Shown here: one piece after another, positions 7,897 through 38,258 of the stretch | Numbering within the stretch: the first letter of the stretch is position 1 | Layout of the letters: every line of letters starts with the position of its first letter | Source of the DNA: Chlamydiales bacterium | GTDB lineage: Bacteria; Chlamydiota; Chlamydiia; Chlamydiales; SM23-39 | Length of the DNA stretch: 64,000 nucleotides | Direction: 5' to 3' | Assembly: GCA_030681135.1 (NCBI GenBank) | Contig: JAUXXF010000019.1 | Coordinates: forward strand, 16,578-80,577 | Made by a program: the position numbers and the translations under genes | Notes under the pieces: generated by a model | The model's database searches: none | What the model saw: only the letters and a program-made list of their open reading frames with translations | Told to the model about the DNA's origin: nothing

Positions 7897-9342
7897 GTGA
7901 AACCGTTTGCTGTCATTCTTTTACTACTTTTTATCAGTTCCTGCCATGTTGGCCCCCGTTATGAAGGACCTTCTTCTGACGCTCCGGCTGATTGGAAAGG
8001 CTCTTCCATGGAAGCCACCGATGCGGCAGTTGAAAACTGGTGGGATATTTTTTGCGACGAGAAGCTAGATGAGCTCGAGAGGCTTGCTATCGAAAATAAT
8101 CGCAATTTGTACATGGCTCTTGAAAAAGTTGCAGAAGCTAGAGCCGTCGCCGGGGTTGCCAAATCAACTCTTTATCCTCAGGTCTATGCGAATCCTGCCT
8201 TTAATAACCTGAATGAGCTGATCAAACTCTACGGAGTTCCTCAGAGTCTATTTCCTGGTCTCAAAACGATCTCAAGAGTGCATGAACAGTCGTATTTGTT
8301 GCCAGTGACGATGAGCTATGAGGTGGATTTGTGGGGGAAATATCGGGGCACATACAATGCAGCGACGATTTACGCTCAGGCGAAAGATGAGGCTGTTAGA
8401 GTCACTCTCTTAACGATCACCACGGAAGTGGCGAGCCACTATTTTAATCTTAGAGCGGTAGATACCCAAATTGCCCTTCTAGAACAAATTCTCAACCTCC
8501 GAAAAGAGCTTTTCTCTCTCATCAAATCGAGATATCAATCTGGTCTTGTCAGTTATCTAGATTATCTCGATGCAGAAAAAATTCTCGCAGACACCGATGC
8601 CGAGTATCAAGAGAGCGTTCGTCAAAGATCCGTCTTTGAAAATGCCCTAGCATCTCTTTTAGGAACGATTGCTTCTGGTTTTTGCTTACCCCCTTCTCCT
8701 CTTTTGACTCCTCCTCCTCCCATTCCATCTGGCATCCCCTCTGAGATGCTCATGCGAAGGCCAGATCTAGCTCAAGCAGAAAGAGCCATGGCTGGGTTTC
8801 ATGAACTCATTTCCGTTGCCTACTCCACCTATTTTCCTTCCATTCTCCTCACTTCCGCCCTTGGGTTTTCCAGCCCCGATCTCTCGCAATTTCTCAACTG
8901 GACAGGTCGTTTATGGCAGATTGGCATCGACATCGCCCAAGTGATTTTTAACGGCGGTCGCAATCGCTCCTACGTAGAAGCTGCCTACGCTCGCTTTCGA
9001 GAGGCTAAAGCCTACTACGAACAAACTGTTTTCACAGCCTTTCAAGAAGTCGAAGATGCCCTAAACAATGTCGAGCAGTCTTCCCTTCAATTCAACGCCT
9101 TGCAAATCGCCTCAACATCTTCTCAACGTTTCTCCGGTCTCTCTGAGCTACGTAACGCAAAAGGTCTCGTCAATTCCCTCGACACCCTCTCTGCTCAGCG
9201 CGCAGCTCTCGATGCCGAACGAACCTCCATGAACGCTCTCGGTCGGCGCTATCAAGCAGCCATTCAACTCATCAAAGCTCTCGGTGGTGGCTGGGAAGGA
9301 TGTTCACCTTATCTTGGGGCTCCGCCCTCCGGAGACGGCTAA
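7897..9342 (+). CDS. NodT/OprM-family efflux outer-membrane lipoprotein
   Basis: Lipobox ISSC-HVGP; WWDIF.DEKL, SYEVDLWGK, PSEML.RRPDL, AFQEVEDAL, LIKALGGGW. The last residues are encoded by the REP/MITE. Confidence 0.93.
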   Translation: MKPFAVILLLLFISSCHVGPRYEGPSSDAPADWKGSSMEATDAAVENWWDIFCDEKLDELERLAIENNRNLYMALEKVAEARAVAGVAKSTLYPQVYANPAFNNLNELIKLYGVPQSLFPGLKTISRVHEQSYLLPVTMSYEVDLWGKYRGTYNAATIYAQAKDEAVRVTLLTITTEVASHYFNLRAVDTQIALLEQILNLRKELFSLIKSRYQSGLVSYLDYLDAEKILADTDAEYQESVRQRSVFENALASLLGTIASGFCLPPSPLLTPPPPIPSGIPSEMLMRRPDLAQAERAMAGFHELISVAYSTYFPSILLTSALGFSSPDLSQFLNWTGRLWQIGIDIAQVIFNGGRNRSYVEAAYARFREAKAYYEQTVFTAFQEVEDALNNVEQSSLQFNALQIASTSSQRFSGLSELRNAKGLVNSLDTLSAQRAALDAERTSMNALGRRYQAAIQLIKALGGGWEGCSPYLGAPPSGDG

Positions 9343-9538
9343 CGAATTTAGATTTCGTCGATTTTAGGGATTATTTTGGCCGATTTTCGATTCTCTTTCG
9401 GGGGGTCATATGCTGAAAGTCGATATTACCCCCCGAAAGAGAATCAAAAAGCGGCTCAAAAGAACCCTAAAATCGACTGAAACTAAATCCGTTAGCCGTC
9501 TCTTCCCCCGCCAAAGGACTGACGTCCTCTGGACTCCC
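9316..9538 (+). repeat. REP-like repeat split by MITE family A
   Basis: GGGGCTCCGCCC (9316-9327) [insert] CCCCGCCAAAGGACTGACGTCCTCTGGACTCCC. Confidence 0.9.
9332..9502. mobile_element. 171-bp palindromic MITE family A, copy 1
   Basis: Ends GAGACGGCTAACG...CGTTAGCCGTCTC; full-length imperfect inverted repeat homologous to 18362-18532 and 35223-35391. Confidence 0.88.
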
Positions 9539-9544
9539 ATTTGT

Positions 9545-9694
9545 TTTTATAGATCTGGACATGCGATGTTGTGGCAGAACTCTGATCTCTACGTTGCAAC
9601 CTAGCAAGGTGAGATAGCTCACAAGTATGTCGTTACTGAAATCATTAAATTTTCCAGTCATGAGGGCAGAGATCACACCGAGCTTTCTTGCCAT
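9545..9694 (-). pseudogene. remnant of an XRE/HTH_37 (HigA-like) helix-turn-helix gene
   Basis: MARKLGV-ISALMTGKFNDFSNDILVSYLTLLGCNVEIRV resembles the C-terminal half of HTH_37 proteins, apparently with a short deletion in the recognition-helix region. Confidence 0.55.
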
Positions 9695-10563
9695 GTGAAA
9701 ATAACTCCCGGGCGACAAAATAGCTTAGATTTTTTTGGATTAATAGAAGACAGACTTTCATTGAACTTTTCTATTGCTTCTGACACGCGTTTACAGGCCT
9801 CTGGTAACTTTTCATTGGAGGAATGTTGAACCATAATTTGTTCCACTTTTCCCCAATATAAAGCGAACAGATTTTCCAAAGCCTTAAATGATTCAATGAA
9901 CTTGGATTGCAGATCATTGATTTTATTTATATCTATCGAAGCAGCTTGACTTGTAGCGGTCGATAAGATGTTGTTGTGAATATGCAAAACCATATCAGCC
10001 TGATCGCAATGAAGTTTAGCTACTGTCTTTATTCCTGAGTGTGGTGGTAATCCACTTTTTTCTCCAATAAGTAATTTAAGTTGCTGATCTGCTTCAAGAA
10101 ATTGTTGTATAATAAAGGATATGTCCTTAATTTTTTGTTCCAATTCAGTAAGTAATTCTTGATATATTTGATTGTTGTTTTTTGTTGCTCTTTGAACTGA
10201 GTTTGATCGGATTTGAGTGCTTATCGGAGCTGGCGTAGGTTGTGTTGAAAAAGGCTTGGAGGAAATGGGAGGTCTAGATGAAGAATTGATTTTTGGCGCC
10301 TTAGAATATTTATCTTTATTCGCCTCTTGAGTTAAGAGGGTAGGAGTTGCTGGTTTCAGATTGTTTGGGGCGCTAGGAAAGAGTAATTCGTATCCTTTGG
10401 TCCATTGCGATAGGTAAAACTCTTTATTTTGCAGACCGACTAAGTATCCGATGTAGGCAATGGCTGCTAAGGCTATTCTGCTGATTCCTTCAAATTTTTG
10501 ACAGCATGTCGAGAAGGAAGGTAAGCTTGGTAAACAGGAAATTTTTTCGCAAACTCTCATCAT
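9673..10563 (-). CDS. hypothetical protein (TM + Pro/Ser-rich linker + coiled coil; effector-like)
   Basis: 296-aa AT-rich ORF with AAGGAG RBS. Confidence 0.65.
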   Translation of the reverse strand: MMRVCEKISCLPSLPSFSTCCQKFEGISRIALAAIAYIGYLVGLQNKEFYLSQWTKGYELLFPSAPNNLKPATPTLLTQEANKDKYSKAPKINSSSRPPISSKPFSTQPTPAPISTQIRSNSVQRATKNNNQIYQELLTELEQKIKDISFIIQQFLEADQQLKLLIGEKSGLPPHSGIKTVAKLHCDQADMVLHIHNNILSTATSQAASIDINKINDLQSKFIESFKALENLFALYWGKVEQIMVQHSSNEKLPEACKRVSEAIEKFNESLSSINPKKSKLFCRPGVIFTWQESSV

Positions 10564-10623
10564 ATAACGCTCCTTTTTGAAAAAATACTAACATGATTTG
10601 CTGAATTTCCCCAAATAATTAAA

Positions 10624-10655
10624 GGAGTTCAAAGGGCTGATGCCCTCTGGACTCT
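10624..10655. repeat. partial REP (hairpin 2 with tails on both sides)
   Basis: GGAGTTCAAAGGGC-TGAT-GCCCTCTGGACTC; the right part matches the REP tails at 9526-9538 and 13508-13521. Confidence 0.75.
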
Positions 10656-10670
10656 CGTTTGTTTTTTCGG

Positions 10671-11423
10671 TTAAAGAGCTTCGTAATGAATTGGATGGAA
10701 AAAATCTTGCGGAGACATTGTACTTTTTTCAGCACCAAATTCCTTCTGAATGGTTCCATTCCCAAGGACCCATAAACGGTCGCCAAGATGTTTGGCGATC
10801 ATCGGATCATGGGTAATCAGTAAGATGGGCACCTTGTGTGTTTGGCTATATTTTTTCGCAAAAGAGAGGAGCTGAGTAGCAGAGGTTGGATCAAGGGCTG
10901 CTGTCGGCTCATCGAGGAGAAGGAGTTTAGGGGGTTTTAGGATGGACATGATAAAGGCAATCATTTGCCTTTGACCTCCTGATAAAGAGCTCATAGGAAC
11001 ATCGAGAAATTTCTCTAAGTTCAAAGGCGCAAGAAATTCTGCAACGATGTTCTCTGGAAAGGCTGCAGTGGCTCGCTGAAATCCTGCAGCTCTTTCTTTG
11101 AGAGTGGCCATTGCAAGATTTTCTCGCACTGTTAGAGCAGAACATGAGCCAAGATAGGTGTTTTGAAAAAGCCTGCTGATAAAGCCAGCTCTTTTCTGTT
11201 CAGACATGGCTGTGATATCGATGCCATCTAGACAGATAGAGCCGCTATCGGGGGGGACTTTTCCAGAAATCATATCAAACAGTGTTGTTTTCCCTGTGCC
11301 ATTAGGACCCATGATGATGACAAAATCACCTGGATTTACGGTGGCAGAAAATGACTTGAGAACATGGAGATTCTTAAATGTTTTAGATACGTTTGAAAGT
11401 TGGAGCATAGGATTACCTCTCAA
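10671..11423 (-). CDS. ABC transporter ATP-binding subunit
   Basis: GPNGTGKTT, LSGGQRQ, LLLLDEPTAALDP, ITH; real start is probably 11408. Confidence 0.95.
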   Translation of the reverse strand: MRGNPMLQLSNVSKTFKNLHVLKSFSATVNPGDFVIIMGPNGTGKTTLFDMISGKVPPDSGSICLDGIDITAMSEQKRAGFISRLFQNTYLGSCSALTVRENLAMATLKERAAGFQRATAAFPENIVAEFLAPLNLEKFLDVPMSSLSGGQRQMIAFIMSILKPPKLLLLDEPTAALDPTSATQLLSFAKKYSQTHKVPILLITHDPMIAKHLGDRLWVLGNGTIQKEFGAEKSTMSPQDFFHPIHYEAL

Positions 11424-12252
11424 TGGCCTCTTTACGCGGTTTTAATTGGATCAAGACAACAATGAGCACAGCTTTAATGAGATTATTCCAGATCGGCTGC
11501 AGCTCGAATTCGATGGTGATGGCAAAAAGTGCTTGGTAAAGGATGGCGCCTAGAATCAGACTTAAACCAAACTTCGGTTTGACCAATTCTGCTAAAATAA
11601 GCCCGGCGATCCCTGTAACAAGAGTTCCTACGCTGCCTGTAATCGAAAACAGCCCGCTCCACTGAACAAAGAGAGCGCCTGCTAAAGCAGTTAGGCTATT
11701 TGCGATGGCAAGACCTGCAATTTTATAGTGATCAACACTTTTTCCCAAAGACGTGACGATTTGAGGGTTGCTGCCAACTGCTATGAAAAGGAGTCCTAAC
11801 TCCGAACGGAGAAGTTTTCTTATTCCCAGATAAACGATTGTGACAAGGATGAGGAGAAGACAAATAGAAAGCAGAGGCGTTTTAGGAAATATCGTCCCCG
11901 ATTCTGGAAGAGGAAGGTTCGAGCTTGCCAGCTTCAAGCAAATGGAAAAAAGAGCTGTTGTGACAACAAGGCCGGAAATGAGGTTATTCATCTTCATTTT
12001 CGTGTGCAAAAGGCCTGTAACAGATCCTGCCAAAGCGCCCCCTAACATAGCTATGGGTAGCGTGATCCACGGCGATAGGCCAGATACGATCGAAAGTGCT
12101 GTAATTGCTCCTCCAAAACCAAAACCTCCTTCTGTTGTCAAATCATCGAACTTGATCACGCGAGAAGAGAGGTAGACACCCATGACAACGAAGGAATAAA
12201 TCAGCCCTAGCAAGATGACATGAAGGAGAATATGAATGATTTCGCTTCCCAT
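11413..12252 (-). CDS. ABC transporter permease (TrpY-like, BPD_transp_2)
   Basis: GVYLSSRV...DLTTEGGFGFGGA, TGLLHTK, GLAIANSLTALAGAL. Confidence 0.9.
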   Translation of the reverse strand: MGSEIIHILLHVILLGLIYSFVVMGVYLSSRVIKFDDLTTEGGFGFGGAITALSIVSGLSPWITLPIAMLGGALAGSVTGLLHTKMKMNNLISGLVVTTALFSICLKLASSNLPLPESGTIFPKTPLLSICLLLILVTIVYLGIRKLLRSELGLLFIAVGSNPQIVTSLGKSVDHYKIAGLAIANSLTALAGALFVQWSGLFSITGSVGTLVTGIAGLILAELVKPKFGLSLILGAILYQALFAITIEFELQPIWNNLIKAVLIVVLIQLKPRKEAIER

Positions 12253-12254
12253 TG

Positions 12255-13196
12255 TTATTCCTTGATGGTTTCTACTGGAAGGTTAATGTGCAAGTTTTCT
12301 GCAACGGTGTTGTTGATGACCGTTTTTGGATTGGTAGGGTTGGTAATTCCTGCAGCTTCAGGAGTCATCCCAAGAAAAAGAACTTTATGGGCCATCTCGG
12401 CTGTTTCTTTCCCCATATCTTTGTACTCTGCTCCCTGAGCCGCAAAAGCGCCTTTTTCAACCAAGGCAATATCAGAGACAAAAAGAGGGCATTGTCTAAG
12501 AGCCGTTTCTTTAACGACAAGAGTGATATTGCTAGCGACGAGATTATCATTTGGGACTAAAATCGCTTCCCCTTTCGCGCAAGCGGCTCTTACAACTTGG
12601 GATAGCTCTTCTGCAGAGTGGGCTCCGACGGTGTGATGTTTAAGCCCTTTTTTCTCAAGCGATGCTTGGATTTTTTTGACCATAATCTGAGAGTTATTTT
12701 CAGATGGGTTGTAAATTAAAGCGACCGTTTGGACATTTGGGATGAGTTGTAAGATCAGATCTGCCTGAGCATCTGTGTTCACCTGGTCAGTTGTTCCGCA
12801 GATATTTGTGTTGGGATGAATAATTCCGAGGGATAGGGGATCAGAGACTGCAGCAATGAAAATCGGCTTTTCCTTTTCAGCTCTTGCAGCCGCTTGCACA
12901 GCGGGGGTTCCAATAGCAAAAATAGCGCTGATCTTTTTACGTGAATGGAAATTTTCTGCAATGCTTTGGGCTTGTGTTAGATTTCCTTCAGCATTTTGAA
13001 CGACGAAATCGATTTTTTGTGTCGATAAACGGTTCATTTCGGCCATAAAGCCGTCTCGAGCCTGGTCAAGAGCTGGGTGGCTTGCTGTTTGTAGAATGCC
13101 AATGGTCATGACTGAGTCGGAGTTGGATGGTTTTTTAAGGACAAACCAACCAATTAAGCCAATCAAAGCAAAAATAAAAATGAATCTTGAAAACAT
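12255..13196 (-). CDS. ABC transporter substrate-binding protein (ABC_sub_bind/TrpX-like, aromatic amino acid)
   Basis: IGILQTASHPALDQARDGF, QNAEGN, AIGTPAVQ, AVSDP, IYNPSENNS, PNDN motifs. Confidence 0.9.
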   Translation of the reverse strand: MFSRFIFIFALIGLIGWFVLKKPSNSDSVMTIGILQTASHPALDQARDGFMAEMNRLSTQKIDFVVQNAEGNLTQAQSIAENFHSRKKISAIFAIGTPAVQAAARAEKEKPIFIAAVSDPLSLGIIHPNTNICGTTDQVNTDAQADLILQLIPNVQTVALIYNPSENNSQIMVKKIQASLEKKGLKHHTVGAHSAEELSQVVRAACAKGEAILVPNDNLVASNITLVVKETALRQCPLFVSDIALVEKGAFAAQGAEYKDMGKETAEMAHKVLFLGMTPEAAGITNPTNPKTVINNTVAENLHINLPVETIKE

Positions 13197-13208
13197 AGTT
13201 CTCCTTGT

Positions 13209-13242
13209 AAAATTAAAAGCCCCAGCTCAGAGGCCGGGGCTT
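13209..13242 (-). terminator. attenuator terminator hairpin
   Basis: Minus strand AAGCCCCGGC-CTCTGA-GCTGGGGCTT-TTAATTTT just upstream of the AAGGAG RBS of the binding-protein gene. Confidence 0.85.
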
Positions 13243-13296
13243 CTCAGTAAGGAGATCCCCGGCCGGGAGCCGGGGCTGTAAATGGGTCACATTTTT

Positions 13297-13380
13297 TTAG
13301 CCAGCCAGCTCCCTTCTCCTAAAGAAAGGATAATAAAACTGAGTAGCAAAAATAAAATAGTTGTTTACTGGCTGTCGCAT
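13297..13380 (-). CDS. Phe/Tyr-rich attenuator leader peptide (27 aa)
   Basis: MRQPVNNYFIFATQFYYPFFRRRELAG*: 5 Phe + 3 Tyr within 13 codons, followed by mutually exclusive GC-rich hairpins. Confidence 0.85.
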   Translation of the reverse strand: MRQPVNNYFIFATQFYYPFFRRRELAG

Positions 13381-13387
13381 GCCTAAG

Positions 13388-13415
13388 ATTCTATCAAAGC
13401 CCCCAAATTATACAA
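13388..13415 (-). promoter_or_regulatory. sigma66/70-type promoter of the leader peptide
   Basis: TTGTAT-16 nt-TAGAAT, ending 7 nt before the leader ATG. Confidence 0.55.
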
Positions 13416-13507
13416 AGCATTATTTCTTCGGATTTTTACCAAACTTGGGAGTTATGTTCGCAAGCGAATCGTATAAAATAATTTACTTTCATGGATCTGT
13501 AAATTAA

Positions 13508-13558
13508 GGGAGTCCAGAGGGCGCAAGCCCTTTGGCGGGGTTTTAGGGGCGGAGCCCC
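13508..13558 (-). repeat. intact REP-like repeat
   Basis: Minus strand GGGGCTCCGCCCC-TAAAA-CCCCGCC-AAAGGGCTTGCGCCCT-CTGGACTCCC; its first G is the last base of the permease TAG. Confidence 0.9.
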
Positions 13559-14667
13559 TAAGAGACGAAACGTCTGCGGAAGAAGTGGGCGGCGGCGGTG
13601 AGGTTGAAGATGGCGATGAGACAAAGAGGCCAGAGGTGTTGGAAGATAGCATGAGTCGGAATGTCTTTGAGGAAGAGGCTACGGCAGATGTACATGAAGT
13701 AGCGAGTGGGGTTGATGTAGGTGGCATATTGAAGCCAGACGGGCATGTTTTCGATGGGGGTAGCAAAACCTGAGAGGAGAACGGCCGGGGTGAGGAAGAC
13801 GAAGGCTCCGAGAATGGCTTGTTGTTGAGTGGCGCAGAGAGATGAGATAAAGAGACCGACTCCGGTGATGGCAGCTGTGTAGATGAATGTGGAGAGGAGA
13901 AGAAGGAAGAAAGAGCCGACGAAGGGGATGTTGAAGAAGAAGAGAACGATGCAGAAGAGGAAGAGGCCTTCGAGGAGACTGACGAGGATGGAGGGGATCG
14001 TCTTGCCGATGAGGATTTCTGAAGGGGTGAGAGGGGAGACGAGAAGCTGATCGAACGTGCCGAGTTCCCGTTCTCGCGCAATGGAAAGACATGTGATGAG
14101 AAGCGCTTCGACCATGGTCAGGATCGCAAGAAGACCTGGAACTGTAAACCACTCGTAGAGAAGATTAGGATTGAACCAATAGCGCAAGATGAGGGCGGTG
14201 GGCTGCGTGGGGATTTTTTCTCTGAAGGAGAGCTCTTTGGCAAATTGATTGATGATCGTGTTGACGTAGCCGGAGATAATTTGTGCCGTGTTCGATTTTC
14301 TGCCATCTAAGATGAGCTGCAGAGAAGGGGAGCGTTGGGAGTCGAAGAGCCGAGAAAACTCCTCGTCGATAGAAAGAACGACAGGGCCGATTTGTTCGTT
14401 GATAAAAGGAGCGATCGATTCTACCGAGGGAAGAAGGATTACGTGGGTAAAAATGGGGGAACCTTGGATCCTTTCTACAAGCTCAAATCCCTTTTCTCCA
14501 TGATCTCGGTTGAGAATGCCAATGGTTACATTTTTCACATCGAGCGTGGCGGCAAAAGAGAAAATACATAGTTGCCAGAGAGGTGGGAAAATCAAAATGA
14601 AGCGGGTTTTTTTGTCTCGCCAGAGGAAAATGAGCTCTTTGAGGATGAGAGATAAAATTCGCTTCAA
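13558..14667 (-). CDS. ABC-2 exporter permease (YbhR-like)
   Basis: LILKE...RD, LDGRKSNTAQI, WFNPNL, SIARERELGTFDQLLVSPL, LSGFATPIENMP. Confidence 0.93.
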   Translation of the reverse strand: MKRILSLILKELIFLWRDKKTRFILIFPPLWQLCIFSFAATLDVKNVTIGILNRDHGEKGFELVERIQGSPIFTHVILLPSVESIAPFINEQIGPVVLSIDEEFSRLFDSQRSPSLQLILDGRKSNTAQIISGYVNTIINQFAKELSFREKIPTQPTALILRYWFNPNLLYEWFTVPGLLAILTMVEALLITCLSIARERELGTFDQLLVSPLTPSEILIGKTIPSILVSLLEGLFLFCIVLFFFNIPFVGSFFLLLLSTFIYTAAITGVGLFISSLCATQQQAILGAFVFLTPAVLLSGFATPIENMPVWLQYATYINPTRYFMYICRSLFLKDIPTHAIFQHLWPLCLIAIFNLTAAAHFFRRRFVS

Positions 14668-15785
14668 TCCAACCTCTTTACAGTCATGTGCGCTGTGTAG
14701 AGAAAAAGAACAAGCCCGATGCCTGCCATGATCGCCAGATTATAGAAGATGAGTTTCATCACGTTGCCGGCAAGAAAAATGGTTTGAAGACAAGAGACAA
14801 AATATTTTGCAGGAATGATGTAGGTCATCCACTGAATAGGAAGCGGCATGCTGGAGATCTCAAAAATAAATCCTGAAAGAATAAAGGCAGGCAAAAATGC
14901 TGAGATAATCGCAGCCTGAGAGGCAACAAATTGGTTTTTTGAAGCAGTAGAGATCAAAAGTCCCATCCCAAGAGCAGTCCACAGAAACACCATGCTGCAT
15001 AAAGCAAGTAAAAGCCAAGATCCACGCAAAGGAATTTGGTAGACAAAAAGAGCGATGATTGTTGAGAAAAGAAACGAAATCATCCCTAAAAGAAAATAGG
15101 AAAGAAGTTTTCCTAAAACAAGCTCTGTAATCGTGACCGGAGTTGCCATCAGCGCCTCCATGGTTCCTCGTTCCCATTCGCGGGCGACGACCAGAGCCGT
15201 AAGAAGAGTCCCAATTAACGTCATGATTAACGCGATAGAGCCGGGAATGAGAAAATTGCGACTCTCCAAATCCTCATTAAACCAAAATCTAGGTTCTACC
15301 TGAATCGGCTGCCATGGGATCCAACGGCTGCTAATCGTTTCTTGGAAGAGCCAGTTTTGAAAGGCCATTTGGACATAATTATCCACAAAATTAGCGGTAT
15401 TAGGTTCGCTCCCGTCGGCAATCACTTGGATAGGAGCTATGTGATCTGCTCGCTGTCTAAAAGAAGAGAAATAAGAAGGAACAACAACAATCCCACGAAC
15501 CGATCCATCGACCAGCTTTGCATGAAACTCTCTTTGATGCCTTCCGATCTGGACAGAAAAATATTCAGAGTCTGTGAGAGCTTTGGCAAAACTTTGCACT
15601 TCGGGAGAAGTGTCTTCGAGAACAAGGCCGATTTTTAAATGTTTATAATCTAAAGAGATGCCATAGCCATAAATAAACAACAAAATGGCAGGCAAAACGA
15701 AGCTGATCAAGATGCTGCTCGGATCGCGGATGATCTGATAAAATTCTTTCACCACGAGGGCTTTAAGTCTTTTGCTGCTGATCAT
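14664..15785 (-). CDS. ABC-2 exporter permease (YbhS-like)
   Basis: KEFYQIIRDPSS, DGSEPNTANFV, VVAREWERGTMEALMATP. Confidence 0.93.
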   Translation of the reverse strand: MISSKRLKALVVKEFYQIIRDPSSILISFVLPAILLFIYGYGISLDYKHLKIGLVLEDTSPEVQSFAKALTDSEYFSVQIGRHQREFHAKLVDGSVRGIVVVPSYFSSFRQRADHIAPIQVIADGSEPNTANFVDNYVQMAFQNWLFQETISSRWIPWQPIQVEPRFWFNEDLESRNFLIPGSIALIMTLIGTLLTALVVAREWERGTMEALMATPVTITELVLGKLLSYFLLGMISFLFSTIIALFVYQIPLRGSWLLLALCSMVFLWTALGMGLLISTASKNQFVASQAAIISAFLPAFILSGFIFEISSMPLPIQWMTYIIPAKYFVSCLQTIFLAGNVMKLIFYNLAIMAGIGLVLFLYTAHMTVKRLD

Positions 15786-17454
15786 ATTGTCTAATTAATG
15801 TAATAAATGCGTCTTCTAAAGTGGGCGTTTTGTTAAGGGGCGTTTGAGCGAGGCTCTTGAGGTTATCTGGCGAATCGATGTGGATCATATGGCTTTGATA
15901 GATCAGCGCAATCCGATCGCAGTATTCAGCTTCATCCATAAAGTGGGTAGAGACCAAGATCGTGCATCCTTTTTCGACAAGGCCGTTGATGTGGTTCCAA
16001 AATTCTCGTCTTGTAATCGGATCGACGCCTGAGGTTGGTTCATCTAAAAACAGCACTTCAGGGTGATGCATTGTAGCGCAAGCCAAGGCTAGCCGCTGTT
16101 TATAGCCGAGAGGGAGGGAAGAAGTGGATAGATTAAGATAAGGGTGAAGTCCAAAAATATCGATCATCTCTTCTACAGCGTGGGAGTAGGAGCGATTTTT
16201 CAGAGGATAAACGCCAGCGAAAAAATGGAGGTTTTGTTTGACGCTAAGCCCTCCATAAAGGGAGAATTTTTGAGCCATGTAACCGATGTGGGAGCGGGCG
16301 ATTGCTGGAGCTGTTTGCAAGCTAACCCCTTCGACAAAGGCTTTGCCAGAGGTGGGTTGCAAAAGGCCGCAAAGCATTTTGAATGTGGTGGATTTTCCTG
16401 CGCCGTTGGGACCTAAGAGTCCGAATACCTCTCCTCTTCGTACTTGAAAAGAGACGTCGTCTACAGCTGTGAAAGAGCCAAAACGTTTTGTTAGGTGTTC
16501 AGCGCTGATCACGTTTTTTTGTTCTGTCAGAATGGGAGTCATCCGATCGGCCAGAGGCGAAGAGCCTCCTGGGGCGCCTCCGAGAAGATCGATAAACGCA
16601 TCCTCAAAGCGAGGAGGACACGGCGTCCAAGAAGGATCTGGCGTTGCATGTTCTTTGATGACGATCCGAATTTTTTCTCCTTGGATTGTTCCATCGAGAA
16701 CCATCTTCTGATTCAGTAAATCGGTCAATAGAGCTCTTTTTCGCGTCTCAGGACGCAAGAGAGTAAATGTTCTTCCCTCCATGCGCTCCGTCAGCTCTTT
16801 GGGAGGCCCTTGATAGAGTAGTTTTCCGCCATTGAGAAGAAGGACGAGACCTGCTTTTTCTGCTTCTTCGAGATACGCTGTGCTCCAAATGATCCCGATC
16901 CCTTCTTGGAGAAATTGTTGAATGAGATCCCACAGTTCCCGTCTCGAGATGGGATCGACGCCGACGCTAGGCTCATCGAGAAGAAGTAGAGTAGGTTTGC
17001 GAATGAGCGTACAGGCAAGTCCTAGCTTTTGTTTCATTCCGCCAGATAGATTGCCAGCCAGTCTCGTTGGATATTTCGAGAGGTTCATCATAGAGAGAAG
17101 TCGATCAAAAACGGCTTTTTTCTCCTTTTCTAAAACTCCTTGCAAGTCGGCATATAAAGAGAGGTTTTGCATCACAGTCAGATCTTCATAAAGACCAAAT
17201 CTCTGCGGCATATAGCCAATTTGGCTTTGGATCTTTTGCGCCTCTTTGACTGTATCCAGGCCATTTACGAGTATGCTGCCTTTGGTGGGCAAAAGAAGCC
17301 CTGCGATCATCCGGAGCAGCGTCGTTTTGCCAGAACCATCTGGTCCTGCAAGGGCGACAAATGTCCCTTGTGGAATCGAGGCACTGATTTGATCGAGAGC
17401 GGTTTGCTGATCGAATGTTTTTGTGACATTACGGATGTCGATCAGGGGCGCCAT
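15763..17454 (-). CDS. ABC exporter dual ATPase (YbhF-like)
   Basis: Two NBDs: GPDGSGKTT/LSGGMKQKL/LDEPSVGVDPISRR and GPNGAGKST/LPLGYKQRL/LDEPTSGVDP. Confidence 0.95.
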   Translation of the reverse strand: MAPLIDIRNVTKTFDQQTALDQISASIPQGTFVALAGPDGSGKTTLLRMIAGLLLPTKGSILVNGLDTVKEAQKIQSQIGYMPQRFGLYEDLTVMQNLSLYADLQGVLEKEKKAVFDRLLSMMNLSKYPTRLAGNLSGGMKQKLGLACTLIRKPTLLLLDEPSVGVDPISRRELWDLIQQFLQEGIGIIWSTAYLEEAEKAGLVLLLNGGKLLYQGPPKELTERMEGRTFTLLRPETRKRALLTDLLNQKMVLDGTIQGEKIRIVIKEHATPDPSWTPCPPRFEDAFIDLLGGAPGGSSPLADRMTPILTEQKNVISAEHLTKRFGSFTAVDDVSFQVRRGEVFGLLGPNGAGKSTTFKMLCGLLQPTSGKAFVEGVSLQTAPAIARSHIGYMAQKFSLYGGLSVKQNLHFFAGVYPLKNRSYSHAVEEMIDIFGLHPYLNLSTSSLPLGYKQRLALACATMHHPEVLFLDEPTSGVDPITRREFWNHINGLVEKGCTILVSTHFMDEAEYCDRIALIYQSHMIHIDSPDNLKSLAQTPLNKTPTLEDAFITLIRQYDQQQKT

Positions 17455-18296
17455 GGCGATCTCTATGTAATTTCACAGTCACAGGCATGCCCTGTTTAAG
17501 TCCCCAGTCGGGGTTATCGGCGTAGACGCGGATTCTGTAGACAAGATCGGTGCGAAGTTCTGTTGATTGGACGGTTTTAGGGGTAAATTCTGCAACAGGG
17601 GAGATGAAGCCAATTTTCCCGGTGTAGGTATTGCCCCCTTTTGTATCGGTAAAAATTTCAGCTTCCATGCCAGGATAAATAACGCCCAAGAGCGGCTCTG
17701 GAACGTAGGCTCTTACCCAGACTGGAGAGATGAGAGAGAGTGTATAGACAGGTTCTCCTTGAAGAACGACAGTTCCTGGTTCTCGGACTCTCGTTAAAAT
17801 CGTCCCATCTGCGGGGCTATAAGCTCTTGTATTGCGAAGATTGGTTTTTGCAACTCCTAAAGTGGCGACAGCCTCTTTCACCCGCTGCTCATCTACATCT
17901 CTTGCAGTCTCTGCATTTTCATAATCTTCTTGAGAAACGCCTCCTACTTTCACAAGCTCCTGGCGTCTTAAAAAAATTTGCTCCGTGTTTTCTAAAGATA
18001 GACGGGCTGCTTGTAGGCTTGCTTCCGCCCTTTTCACTTCATCAGCATAAGGCTGCGGATCGATCGATGCCATCAAGGCGCCTTTGGGAACAAAATCCCC
18101 CTCTTCGAAAGGCATTGAGCGCACATTGCCGTAGACTCGAAAGCCGATGTCTACTTGTCTGACGTCGACATTGCCATAGAGCGTGATTTCGTCTTTGTGA
18201 TTTTTATGGGTTAAGTTGAAAACCAACCAAACTACCGTGCAAGTGATCAGCACGGAAATAACCACAATCAAGATGTTTTTTATCATAGGCCTCATA
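17429..18296 (-). CDS. HlyD-family periplasmic adaptor (YbhG-like)
   Basis: LYGNVDVRQV, GFISPVAEFTPKTVQSTELRTDLVYR, QGMPVTV; start at 18296 or 18287 rather than 18331. Confidence 0.93.
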
Positions 18297-18346
18297 ATCG
18301 AGGTTTTATGATTTGAATCGTCTAAAGTCAAGGGGCGATTTGCATT

Positions 18347-18567
18347 GGGGCTCCGCCCTAGGAGACTGTTAATGGATTTAGTTTCTGTCGATTTTAGAGT
18401 TTTTTTGAGCGAAATTTCGTTTGCTTTTAGGGGGGTAATATCGCCTTCCAGTATATGACCCCCCTAAAAGCAAACGAAATTTGGCCAAAAAAATCCCTAA
18501 AATCGACGAAACCTAAACCCATTAACAGTCTCTTACCCCGCCAAAGGACTCCGTCCTTATGGAATCC
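18347..18567 (+). repeat. REP-like repeat split by MITE family A
   Basis: GGGGCTCCGCCC-TA-[insert]-TA-CCCCGCCAAAGGACTCCGTCCTTATGGAATCC. Confidence 0.9.
18362..18532. mobile_element. 171-bp palindromic MITE family A, copy 2
   Basis: Ends GAGACTGTTAATG...CATTAACAGTCTC; interior is in the opposite orientation to copy 1. Confidence 0.9.
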
Positions 18568-35391: not shown

Positions 35392-38258
35392 TTAGGCTTA
35401 GCAGGCTGTTTTGCTGAACGGGTGTGTTCTTCTGGAGGCCTTGGCATCATTTCGAAGCGGAAAAGATCGGTTGTAATTTTTTCTCGAAGCTGTAGAGAAA
35501 ATGCTTCGAACAGGGCAAAAGATTCATGTTTGAATTCAACAAGGGGATCTTTTTGTCCTACACTGCGCATATGGACATCGGAGCGAAGGTGGTCGATGGC
35601 GAGTAGGTGCTCTTGCCAGAGTTGATCGATTCTTCTGGTCATGAGATTTCGGATAATCTCTTGTAAAAGACCTTGTGTTTTTTCTGCATCTGTCAAGTCG
35701 GGACGTACTATGGAGAGAATTTGTGTTTGTCTTTTTAGTTTGAGCTCGAAAGCATTTAAGATAAGAGACGACGCCATTGTCGCGGGATCATCAGATGCGT
35801 TATCGAAGAATGTTTCCTCAAAATGGACTGGAAAATGAGCCATAAGGGCTTCTCTATAGGCTAGCCAGCCAGATTTTTCAGCGGGACGATCAGAGAAAAT
35901 GGGGGTTGCTAGCTGAGCGCATACAGCTCGTAGTAAGTCTTCTGCAAACTCTGTGACGTTTGCTGTAGAAAGGAGATCATTTCGAAATTCATACACTTCT
36001 TTCCGCTGTTTATTCATCACATCGTCATATTCGAGCGTATGTTTTCGGATGGTATAATTACGCTGTTCTACTCGTTTTTGTGCTGTTTCAATGGACTGAT
36101 TGAGGATTTTAGCAGAGATGGCCTCTCCTTCTGGAGGGCGGAACCTTTGGAGCAATGCTGTCATTCGAGGAGAAGCAAAAAGACGCATGAGAGCATCTTC
36201 AAAAGAGACAAAAAATTTGGAAGATCCTGGGTCTCCAAGACGTCCGGATCTACCTCGAAGCTGTCTGTCGATTCGGCGTGATTGATGTCTTGTTGTGGCA
36301 ATGACGTGAAGCCCCCCGAGCTCAGCTACGCCGGCCTTAAGCTTAATGTCAGTGCCTCGCCCTGCCATATTTGTAGCGAGTGTAATGGCCCCAACTTGCC
36401 CGGCTTCCGCAATGATCTGCGCTTCTTTTTCGTGATTTTTAGCGTTAAGGATCGTATGTTCAAGCTTATTTTGTTTCAAAATGCGAGAGAGCTTTTCAGA
36501 GACTTCGACCGATTCAGTGCCGATCAAAATAGGTCTGCCTTGAGCATGGACAGTCTGGATCTCTTTTACAAGGGCATTGTACTTTTCTCTTTCAGTCATG
36601 TAAATTTCATCATCGGCATCTTTTCTTCTGCACGCTCGATGGGTTGGAATTTCTAGAACTTCTAGTTTGTAGATTTCTTTAAATTCATTCGCCTCTGTAA
36701 TCGCAGTCCCTGTCATCCCTGCAAGTTTTTCGTACATGCGGAAATAATTTTGGAGGGTGATTGTCGCATAGGTTTGCGTCTCCCCCTGGATATCGACGTT
36801 TTCTTTGGCTTCAATCGCTTGGTGGAGTCCATCGGAAAAACGGCGTCCTGGCTGCGGTCTTCCTGTGTTCTCATCGATAATGACGATTTTTCCTTCATGG
36901 ACGATGTAGTCGATGTCTTTTTCCATGAGAAGCTGCGCCCGGAGCATCTGCCTTAAGTTGTGGGAGCGCTCTTTTCGTTTTGCGTCTTCTTCTCTCAGTT
37001 GGATTTTAGCTTGCATTTTTGCTTCGTCGGAGAGATCTGAATTTTGATCGATGGTTGCATATTCATGGCCAAGATCGAGCATGACAAAATCAGTCGATTC
37101 TTGTTCTCCTTTCGATTCGCTCCAGTTTGCGATGCCTTTGTCGGTCAGCTCGTATTCGTTGTTCCTCTCATCGACGATCATGTAGAGATCGGCCAAGTTC
37201 TTTGCCTTTTCTTCCTTATTCGCTTCCCCAAAGAAATAAGTCTCCCAATTGTCAATGGCTGCGCGCATATCGGGGTTTTCTTTGATCCTCTTTAGGATTT
37301 TGTTACGAGGGGTCCCTTTGCTAACGACCCATAATTTTTTAAAGGCTTCGTTTCTTTTGGCCAGCTCTTCTTTCGAGAGTTTTTTTTGTTTGGTTTCTTC
37401 TTCGTCGATCAGTCCCAACGATTCAAGGGCTTTTTTTGCCTCTGTTGCATAGTGATTGCATAAGTCTCTTTGTCTTTTGACAAGCGCTGCCACGTCATCT
37501 TGCAGCTCGTCGTACATTTGACGGTTTTCTCCAATGGGGCCTGAGATAATAAGCGGCGTTCTAGCTTCATCGATGAGGATGGAATCAACCTCGTCTACGA
37601 TCGCAAAGAAATGTCCTCGCTGCACTTGTTCATTCTTATGCATAGCCATCGAATTATCGCGAAGATAATCAAAGCCAAATTCTGAAGCCGTTCCGTAAAC
37701 AATGTCGGATTGATAAATGGCTTTACGCTTAAAAGAGGGGACGTCGTTTGTTAATGCCTCTACGGTAAGACCGAGTTTGCGGAAAATAGAGCCGATCCAC
37801 TCGCAGTCGCGTCTTGCCAAATAATCATTGACCGTCACGAGATGGACAGCTTTCCCAGATAAAGCATAAAGGAAAAGTGGTAGGGATGCTGTGAGTGTTT
37901 TTCCTTCTCCAGTTTGCATTTCAGCAATAGAGCCGTAAAACATGGAGATGGCCCCGAGGATCTGTACGTCATAAGGAACCATGTCCCAATTTTGGCTGTA
38001 ACCAGAGACGTGTACCTCAGTCCCGCAAAGTCTGCGGCAGGCATTTTTTACAAGAGCGAAGGCTTCGGGAAGAAGTGATTCGAGGGTCTCGCCATTGACA
38101 AGTCTTTCTTTGAATTCTGGGGTCTTTTTAGCGAACTCTTCATCACTTAATTGCTGATAAGACTCTTCCCATTTGTTCACTTCAGGAACAAGGCGTGCGT
38201 ATTTCTTGAGGCGTCTGGATTGAGCTGTGCCAAAAATTTTCTTTAAAAGGCCGAACAT
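35373..38258 (-). CDS. secA: preprotein translocase ATPase SecA
   Basis: EMQTGEGKTL, VTVNDYLARRD, VDEVDSILIDEARTPLIISG, ATNMAGRGTDI, QLRGRSGRLGDPG. Confidence 0.99.
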   Translation of the reverse strand: MFGLLKKIFGTAQSRRLKKYARLVPEVNKWEESYQQLSDEEFAKKTPEFKERLVNGETLESLLPEAFALVKNACRRLCGTEVHVSGYSQNWDMVPYDVQILGAISMFYGSIAEMQTGEGKTLTASLPLFLYALSGKAVHLVTVNDYLARRDCEWIGSIFRKLGLTVEALTNDVPSFKRKAIYQSDIVYGTASEFGFDYLRDNSMAMHKNEQVQRGHFFAIVDEVDSILIDEARTPLIISGPIGENRQMYDELQDDVAALVKRQRDLCNHYATEAKKALESLGLIDEEETKQKKLSKEELAKRNEAFKKLWVVSKGTPRNKILKRIKENPDMRAAIDNWETYFFGEANKEEKAKNLADLYMIVDERNNEYELTDKGIANWSESKGEQESTDFVMLDLGHEYATIDQNSDLSDEAKMQAKIQLREEDAKRKERSHNLRQMLRAQLLMEKDIDYIVHEGKIVIIDENTGRPQPGRRFSDGLHQAIEAKENVDIQGETQTYATITLQNYFRMYEKLAGMTGTAITEANEFKEIYKLEVLEIPTHRACRRKDADDEIYMTEREKYNALVKEIQTVHAQGRPILIGTESVEVSEKLSRILKQNKLEHTILNAKNHEKEAQIIAEAGQVGAITLATNMAGRGTDIKLKAGVAELGGLHVIATTRHQSRRIDRQLRGRSGRLGDPGSSKFFVSFEDALMRLFASPRMTALLQRFRPPEGEAISAKILNQSIETAQKRVEQRNYTIRKHTLEYDDVMNKQRKEVYEFRNDLLSTANVTEFAEDLLRAVCAQLATPIFSDRPAEKSGWLAYREALMAHFPVHFEETFFDNASDDPATMASSLILNAFELKLKRQTQILSIVRPDLTDAEKTQGLLQEIIRNLMTRRIDQLWQEHLLAIDHLRSDVHMRSVGQKDPLVEFKHESFALFEAFSLQLREKITTDLFRFEMMPRPPEEHTRSAKQPAKPKSLLLN

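Follow-up and report, generated by a model that had tools for sequence, protein, structure and literature searches.

Insertion sequences of five families, IS5 included, target repetitive extragenic palindromic sequences (REPs), as described in the excerpted text of Tobes and Pareja (2006; PMC1525189); its list names IS1397 and ISKpn1 (IS3), IS621, ISPpu9, ISPpu10, ISPa11, ISPsy8 and ISRm19 (IS110), ISRm22 (IS4), for which imperfect direct repeats are reported, ISRm5 (IS256) and ISNm1106 (IS5). We investigated an arrangement of this kind in a 64,000-nucleotide stretch (hereafter the window) of the genome of a Chlamydiales bacterium, where two REPs are each split by a 171-bp element. [quoted passage not shown] MITEs of the IS5-family or PIF-Harbinger type have GAG or GGG ends and TNA or TWA duplications (ISfinder groups IS1031 and IS427). 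The element resembles them in its GAG...CTC ends and in the 3-bp TNA duplications of its relatives and of other subfamilies in the same genome, and differs in that its REP-associated type is without TNA duplications there and that no partner insertion sequence was found. As with the REP-targeting insertion sequences in the excerpted text of PMC1525189, a mobile element occupies a fixed position in an intergenic repeat that is short and palindromic, has few or no copies elsewhere, and is flanked by the broken REP halves; the guest is unlike them in being 171 bp long without a transposase gene, in its site between two hairpins, in its two orientations and in its unclean flanks. The host repeat, set against the REP doublets forming hairpins (REPINs) and the REPs associated with REP-associated tyrosine transposases (RAYTs) in the excerpted texts of PMC3116915 and PMC2817692, shares with them the inverted doublets, the roughly 60-100 copies and the presence in few related genomes, and is unlike them in having two different hairpins, no GTAG/CGTC tag and no Y1 transposase in its genome. 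The literature covered, in part and by its main texts (PMC3733652 and PMC3184786 included), yielded neither a description of a REP with a bacterial MITE inside it nor one of REPs in chlamydiae. The best reading is that the nested MITE represents the MITE version of the REP-targeting habit of insertion sequences.

The source genome (G000) is a 1.94-Mb assembly of 33 contigs with a completeness of 97% by markers, and the window is part of its contig C22. Its REP is an intergenic repeat of roughly 65 bp, in which two different GC-rich hairpins are separated by a 4-nt linker (GGGGCTCCGCCC-CAAA-CCCCGCCAAAGGAC...GTCCTTTGG). Firstly, we searched G000 for the two REP halves, taking halves 20-400 bp apart as split REPs, and recorded about 90 copies, of which about 80 are intact. 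The split REPs showed spacings of 176-191 bp only, and every one of them was filled by a copy of the MITE family. With contig ends and a search for the MITE terminus included, ten copies lie in a linker (Table 1). Six of them are complete and three are located at contig ends; the tenth is a remnant that looks like the product of a microhomology deletion that took out most of the nested copy. Secondly, we carried out a census of the MITE family by blastn, with the three copies of the window (A1 and A2, each nested in a REP, and A3, outside any REP) as queries against all G000 contigs, which gave 75 loci; 45 of these measure 120 bp or more. All ten linker copies have one terminal type, GAGNCTGYTAAYGGATTTAG (also written GAGNCTGYTAAYGG), whose only other occurrences in G000 are two short, TAA-flanked remnants (C28:11018-11037 and C32:102353-102372); 10 of the 12 loci of this type are thus in the linker, at one fixed position of the repeat, as in REP-targeting elements. 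Other terminal types, among them GAGGGTGTCTAC, GACCTCTTTCG preceded by TA, GAACCTATCC and GAGACTGTC, lie outside REP linkers, and several of the copies away from REPs carry clean TNA duplications. Two copies of other types touch a REP elsewhere than in the linker, one at a TTA in the stem of hairpin 2 (C32:158021-158166), the other abutting the outer edge of the repeat (C17:38461-38605). With 9 out of 55 elements falling in a linker, the target restricted to one tenth of the genome and independent events assumed, the binomial tail is 1.6e-15. Linker nesting is far beyond chance.

Thirdly, we determined the polarity of the nested copies, given as + or - in REP orientation and assigned by blast scores, which were clear-cut in most copies. 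The MITE is a near-palindrome whose arms differ about 20 nt from the ends (GGTTTCGTCG versus GTTTCAGTCG) and about 40 nt from the ends (GGGATTATTTTGGCC versus GGGTTCTTTTGAGCC), and whose loop is asymmetric. Five linker copies are + (A1, C33:11897, C31 end, C32/C9 and C33 start) and four are - (A2, C26, C33:12210 and C1), the C14 remnant being left out of this tally. In each of the six complete linker copies all five markers (the loop and two in either arm) switch jointly; since the arm markers switch along with the loop, it is the entire element that is inverted and not a core. Save a few substitutions, the A1 loop is the reverse complement of the A2 loop. Four members of another subfamily (C1_75747, C19_33958, C19_53535 and C27_66247) have only the loop inverted against the arm markers, and the arms have been made symmetric in two linker copies, C32/C9 and C33 start, revealing that copying within the palindrome occurs in this family. 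One of the four, C19_33958, is located at the centre of a longer unrelated palindrome. Folding of composite A1 as single-stranded DNA gave three separate hairpins (-77.5 kcal/mol, z = -13.6 versus shuffles): REP hairpin 1, cut to 4 bp, the MITE as one long hairpin, and REP hairpin 2, intact. An earlier note on this DNA, made from the letters alone, had described REPs split at the same point near 9316 and 18347 by elements of equal length, with cores inverted relative to the REP, and uninterrupted REPs as empty sites at 13558, 29419 and 29566; all of this was borne out, the linker being CTAAAA at 13558 and CAAA in the other two. Its proposal of a non-autonomous element with REP specificity is supported for the GAGNCTGYTAAYGGATTTAG terminal type (10 linker copies versus two remnants) and not for family A, its name for the MITE family, as a whole, most of whose copies do lie outside REPs (among the 45 loci of 120 bp or more, 38 are outside the linker and seven inside); applied to the entire family, this is the outcome that the note had named as refuting its proposal.

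We analysed the corresponding sites in related genomes. With A1 and its flanks as the query, the MITE family was matched in 17 of 31 genomes, covering many genera of the bacterial family. At the A1 locus, the G001 counterpart of the upstream outer-membrane efflux gene (Pfam OEP) is directly followed by an uninterrupted REP, whose linker is CAAA, and G002 has none there; at the C33:12210 locus, a single uninterrupted REP lies by the same downstream gene in G001 and G002, and none in G003 and G004. For two of the five composite loci searched, an intact REP stands at the corresponding place in sister genomes, the linker itself not being reconstructed, and the other three loci are uninformative; the C26 flanks are not conserved in these genomes and only the downstream flank of the C1 locus was matched. 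In their hairpin-1 loops (TCC 7, TCT 1, TTC 1) the MITE-holding REPs mirror the 78 intact ones (TCC 40, TCT 21, TTC 9), and the left and right halves of the composites pair as in intact REPs, in which the loop and the post-linker bases vary in linked combinations. The REP pattern in its strict form, run over 81 genomes of the bacterial family, matched 59 times in G000, 103 in G001, 89 in G002 and 15 in G039, and once or twice in each of two others. G001 has one split REP, whose guest occupies the same linker, is of another subfamily (GAACCTATCC ends) and is flanked by TAA and CAA; no further split REP, with a shorter guest or otherwise, was detected in G001, G002 or G039 at gaps of 134-195 bp. 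A metagenome scan for more composites with the left-junction pattern returned one stretch, a chance match without the element. G010 and G013, which have zero REP matches, harbour numerous nearly identical copies with the REP-associated terminal type (GAGACTGTTAACGG), dispersed over unrelated sites. Of the 16 copies L014-L029, 14 have an identical TAA, TTA, TCA or TGA triplet at either end, the other two being mismatched, and three further copies were unreadable in register. Finally, we built a tree from the interiors of 42 G000 copies, with the outer 20 nt trimmed and C20_14686 omitted for its long branch. Five linker copies cluster, A2 groups with three non-REP copies with other ends (Shimodaira-Hasegawa-like approximate likelihood ratio 98), and C1 takes a third position; forcing seven linker copies into one clade cost 24.6 log-likelihood units (approximately unbiased test, p = 0.0155). 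As the interiors do not form one clade, either several lineages entered the linker independently or interiors were exchanged between copies.

We favour, with moderate confidence, preferential nested insertion of one MITE terminal type, whole and free in orientation, into the linker of pre-existing REPs. The 171-bp element would be a non-autonomous transposon of the IS5 or PIF-Harbinger kind, an assignment suggested by its GAG...CTC end sequence and the TNA duplications. Copies of the GAGNCTGYTAAYGGATTTAG type would have entered the linker of existing REPs in either orientation, leaving both REP hairpins able to fold. The insertions may have been made by a DDE transposase acting in trans and now absent from the assembly, which would be drawn to the linker by DNA structure, not by sequence. 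Copying between composites does happen, since the two neighbouring C33 copies have one and the same interior and differ at their ends, and could later have evened out the junctions; the REP half and the outer, symmetric part of the MITE arm are common to all composites.

Several observations weigh against this reading. The A2 locus is without a REP in G001 and G002, and the sister REPs at the A1 and C33:12210 loci are of other subtypes than those of G000; because the flanking genes are 66-78% identical between these genomes and the REP subtypes differ, strict orthology is well supported without being proven. Target duplications are missing at the junctions, a clean TNA duplication being found in none of the six complete copies. 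In REP orientation the left flanks of the linker copies read TCCG, TAG, TCG, TCT, TCG, TTG, TCG, TTA and TGA, and the right flanks TTC, TTA (five times), TA and CTG. This asymmetry, T-N-G on the left and TTA on the right, goes with the REP, whatever the MITE polarity; the left flank TCG is found with both polarities (C26, -; C33b, -; C31, +). The canonical linker CAAA contains no TNA and is absent from the filled sites, and we could not derive the observed junctions from it by duplication of 2, 3 or 4 nt on either strand. The different ends of the two C33 copies with identical interiors belong among these points, as does the absence of an IS5-type transposase from G000 in a search with profiles PF01609, PF13586, PF13340 and PF13359, which detected only an IS982-like DDE_Tnp_1 remnant. 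We also considered that only REPs with a TNA-containing linker were hit, which is unlikely, such linkers being scarce (4 matches over four genomes). The REP-fixed, non-duplicated junctions are the one feature outside the reach of ordinary transposition. That a REP-homing MITE breaks the TNA rule of its family, replacing the 4-nt linker with REP-fixed triplets (T-N-G and TTA) at either polarity, appears to us distinctly improbable; such linker-replacing integration would mean either that a DDE transposase captures the two-hairpin target by its structure or that inter-repeat copying proceeds without a transposase.

The search for a partner enzyme was extended to the relatives. None of the DDE_Tnp_1 matches of five relatives provided a partner for the REP-associated ends, and the neighbours of solitary MITE ends in G010 are unrelated open reading frames (ORFs), with no partner transposase. 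Insertion sequences of the IS5_3 type in relatives end in GAGCCTATCCTAATAAA, GAACCTATCTCAAT and GAGCCTATCTTGATT, matching the GAACCTATC MITE subfamily, and IS5_3-type ends of the form GAGCCTATCC / GAACCTATCTC resemble one MITE subfamily. The IS5 likeness proposed in the earlier note, GAG...CTC ends with TWA or TA duplications, is supported in that relatives have TNA duplications and IS5-type ends match another subfamily, and a correction applies to A1 (TCCG/TTC) and A2 (TAG/TTA), whose flanks are not clean; a transposase with GAGAC/GAGTC ends, which that note had suggested looking for, was not found. Beside one solitary MITE end, an ORF (L077, from G010:C130, 1334-1498) resembles what we take to be the N-terminus of an IS630-type transposase, and the TA-flanked subfamily (GACCTC...GAGGTC between two TA) might use an IS630-type enzyme. 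The IS982-like remnant of G000 (235 aa, L001 = G000:C19:3322-6807) is its only DDE transposase remnant; it is interrupted at the 5' end by a different hairpin element of 160 bp (L001, about 1250-1413), whose 34-nt arms are 97% complementary.

The alternative that survives best is that one or a few ancient REP insertions occurred, that the filled form spread by inter-repeat copying or by REP multiplication, and that polarity was later reversed by template switching within the palindrome. We regard this as possible and on the unlikely side, and, given the junctions and the lack of a matching transposase, it has to be taken seriously. The composites share junction triplets that are REP-fixed and polarity-independent, CAAA is replaced and not duplicated, and G000 is without a matching transposase; moreover, the four loop-only inversions and the symmetric arms of C32/C9 and C33 start are cases of copying within the palindrome, and the C33 pair is identical inside and differs at the ends. 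In contrast, the homology available on the left side is just 14 nt, so short that recombination between REPs is unlikely to have been the vehicle, judging from what is generally known of minimal homology lengths. The REP subtypes of the composites are diverse with their halves correctly paired, and the interiors are not one clade. A full reversal would require both switches within the outer 19 nt, and mixed polarity is seen in none of the six complete composites. The two C33 copies, which sit in an inverted REP doublet, are direct in the genome, contrary to the outcome of REP-guided copying. Preferential insertion into existing REPs has also to be set against random insertion at TNA sites, after which only copies at innocuous sites, the REP linker among them, would have survived. 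Such a filter would suit the compactness of the genome, the fact that a copy in the linker spares the two hairpins and the T-rich tail, and the presence of other copies at gene ends and in spacers; about 38 long copies of other terminal types nevertheless persist outside linkers, the linker is 4 nt among many kilobases of spacer (with the tail probability given above), and TNA is normally missing from it, and we hold this explanation to be very improbable. Hardly credible, and rejected for the linker copies, is an element fixed in place of which only the central core flips as an invertible switch, as the earlier note had entertained: the reverse-complementary loops of A1 and A2 and the loop-only inversions known in four copies of another subfamily agree with it, whereas in all six complete composites, A1 and A2 among them, the arm markers change orientation together with the loop, no sign of a recombinase emerged, no search aimed at one being made, and public contigs show one form per locus, minor forms not being visible there. 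The stretch is present in a single sequencing run (share 0.99), probably the source sample and labelled groundwater metagenome, whose contigs end inside MITEs, none crossing an empty REP, and speak neither for nor against two orientations at one locus.

Table 1. Composites, intact REPs and family copies in the window, and the remaining linker copies of G000. Positions are those of the window unless a contig is named.
Feature	Position	Strand	Remark
A1 REP left half (hairpin 1, TTGGGGCTCCGCCC)	9314-9327	+	
A1 left junction TCCG	9328-9331	+	no clean duplication
MITE A1, 171 bp, GAGACGG...CCGTCTC	9332-9502	+	complete linker copy; + polarity versus REP; single long hairpin on folding
A1 right junction TTC	9503-9505	+	
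A1 REP right half	9506-9552	+	CCCCGCC, hairpin 2 and T-rich tail
A2 REP left half (TTGGGGCTCCGCCC)	18345-18358	+	
A2 left junction TAG	18359-18361	+	
MITE A2, 171 bp, GAGACTG...CAGTCTC	18362-18532	-	complete linker copy; - polarity versus REP; loop and arms all inverted
A2 right junction TTA	18533-18535	+	
A2 REP right half	18536-18567	+	
A3, family copy outside any REP, GAGTCTG...CAGACTC	35223-35391	-	TTA at 35220-35222 and 35392-35394
Intact REP, empty site, 6-nt linker CTAAAA	13503-13560	-	
Intact REP, linker CAAA, first in inverted doublet	29417-29466	+	
Intact REP, linker CAAA, second in doublet	29520-29568	-	
Complete linker copy	C26:28816-28987		
Complete linker copy	C33:11897-12066		
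Complete linker copy	C33:12210-12380		
Complete linker copy	C1:163336-163506		
Linker copy at contig end	C31 end		
Linker copy at contig end	C33 start		
Linker copy at contig ends	C32 start and C9 start		fit as one copy
Linker remnant	C14:15643-15690		TGA and first 14 nt of the MITE terminus, joined directly to second half of hairpin 2

The REP right halves of A1 and A2 both begin with CCCCGCCAAAGGAC and run to GTCC, followed by the T-rich tail. The OEP gene (7897-9342, + strand) runs through the left REP half of A1 and has its TAA stop (9340-9342) inside the MITE; it gains about nine residues versus its G001 counterpart, whose TAG stop sits just before the intact REP. Next to A3, a 23-nt right-end remnant (35197-35219) adjoins a TTA, which is followed by the full copy and a second TTA; A3 seems to be a newer copy that landed on the flank of an older, nearly lost one. 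Among the G000 REPs, the linker after GGGGCNNNGCCC is CAAA in 59 of 80, and three linkers are of 6 nt (CTACAA, CTAAAA and CTTATA). Inverted doublets are common, with a spacing of 120-140 bp and a small central hairpin between the two REPs (for example, 29417-29568 of the window). A deletion variant of the REP, either copied or arisen twice, is present at two loci (G000:C3:33156 and C17:9644); its left half runs straight into TTATGGAATCC, with which hairpin 2 ends. A RAYT was considered as the maker of the REPs and set aside, G000 having no Y1 gene and the Y1 genes of G002 and G003 having no flanking REPs. Rfam gave zero family matches within the window.

REPs were already known as landing pads for complete insertion sequences, and an element without a transposase now appears with the same habit. 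This habit travels with the terminal repeats and not with the interior of the element. The same ends seek TNA where the REP is absent, which offers a natural comparison between REP sequence and two-hairpin structure as the attractant. In practice, such elements break assemblies, nine of the 75 family loci touching a contig end. In the small genomes of these bacteria, layered selfish repeats accumulate.

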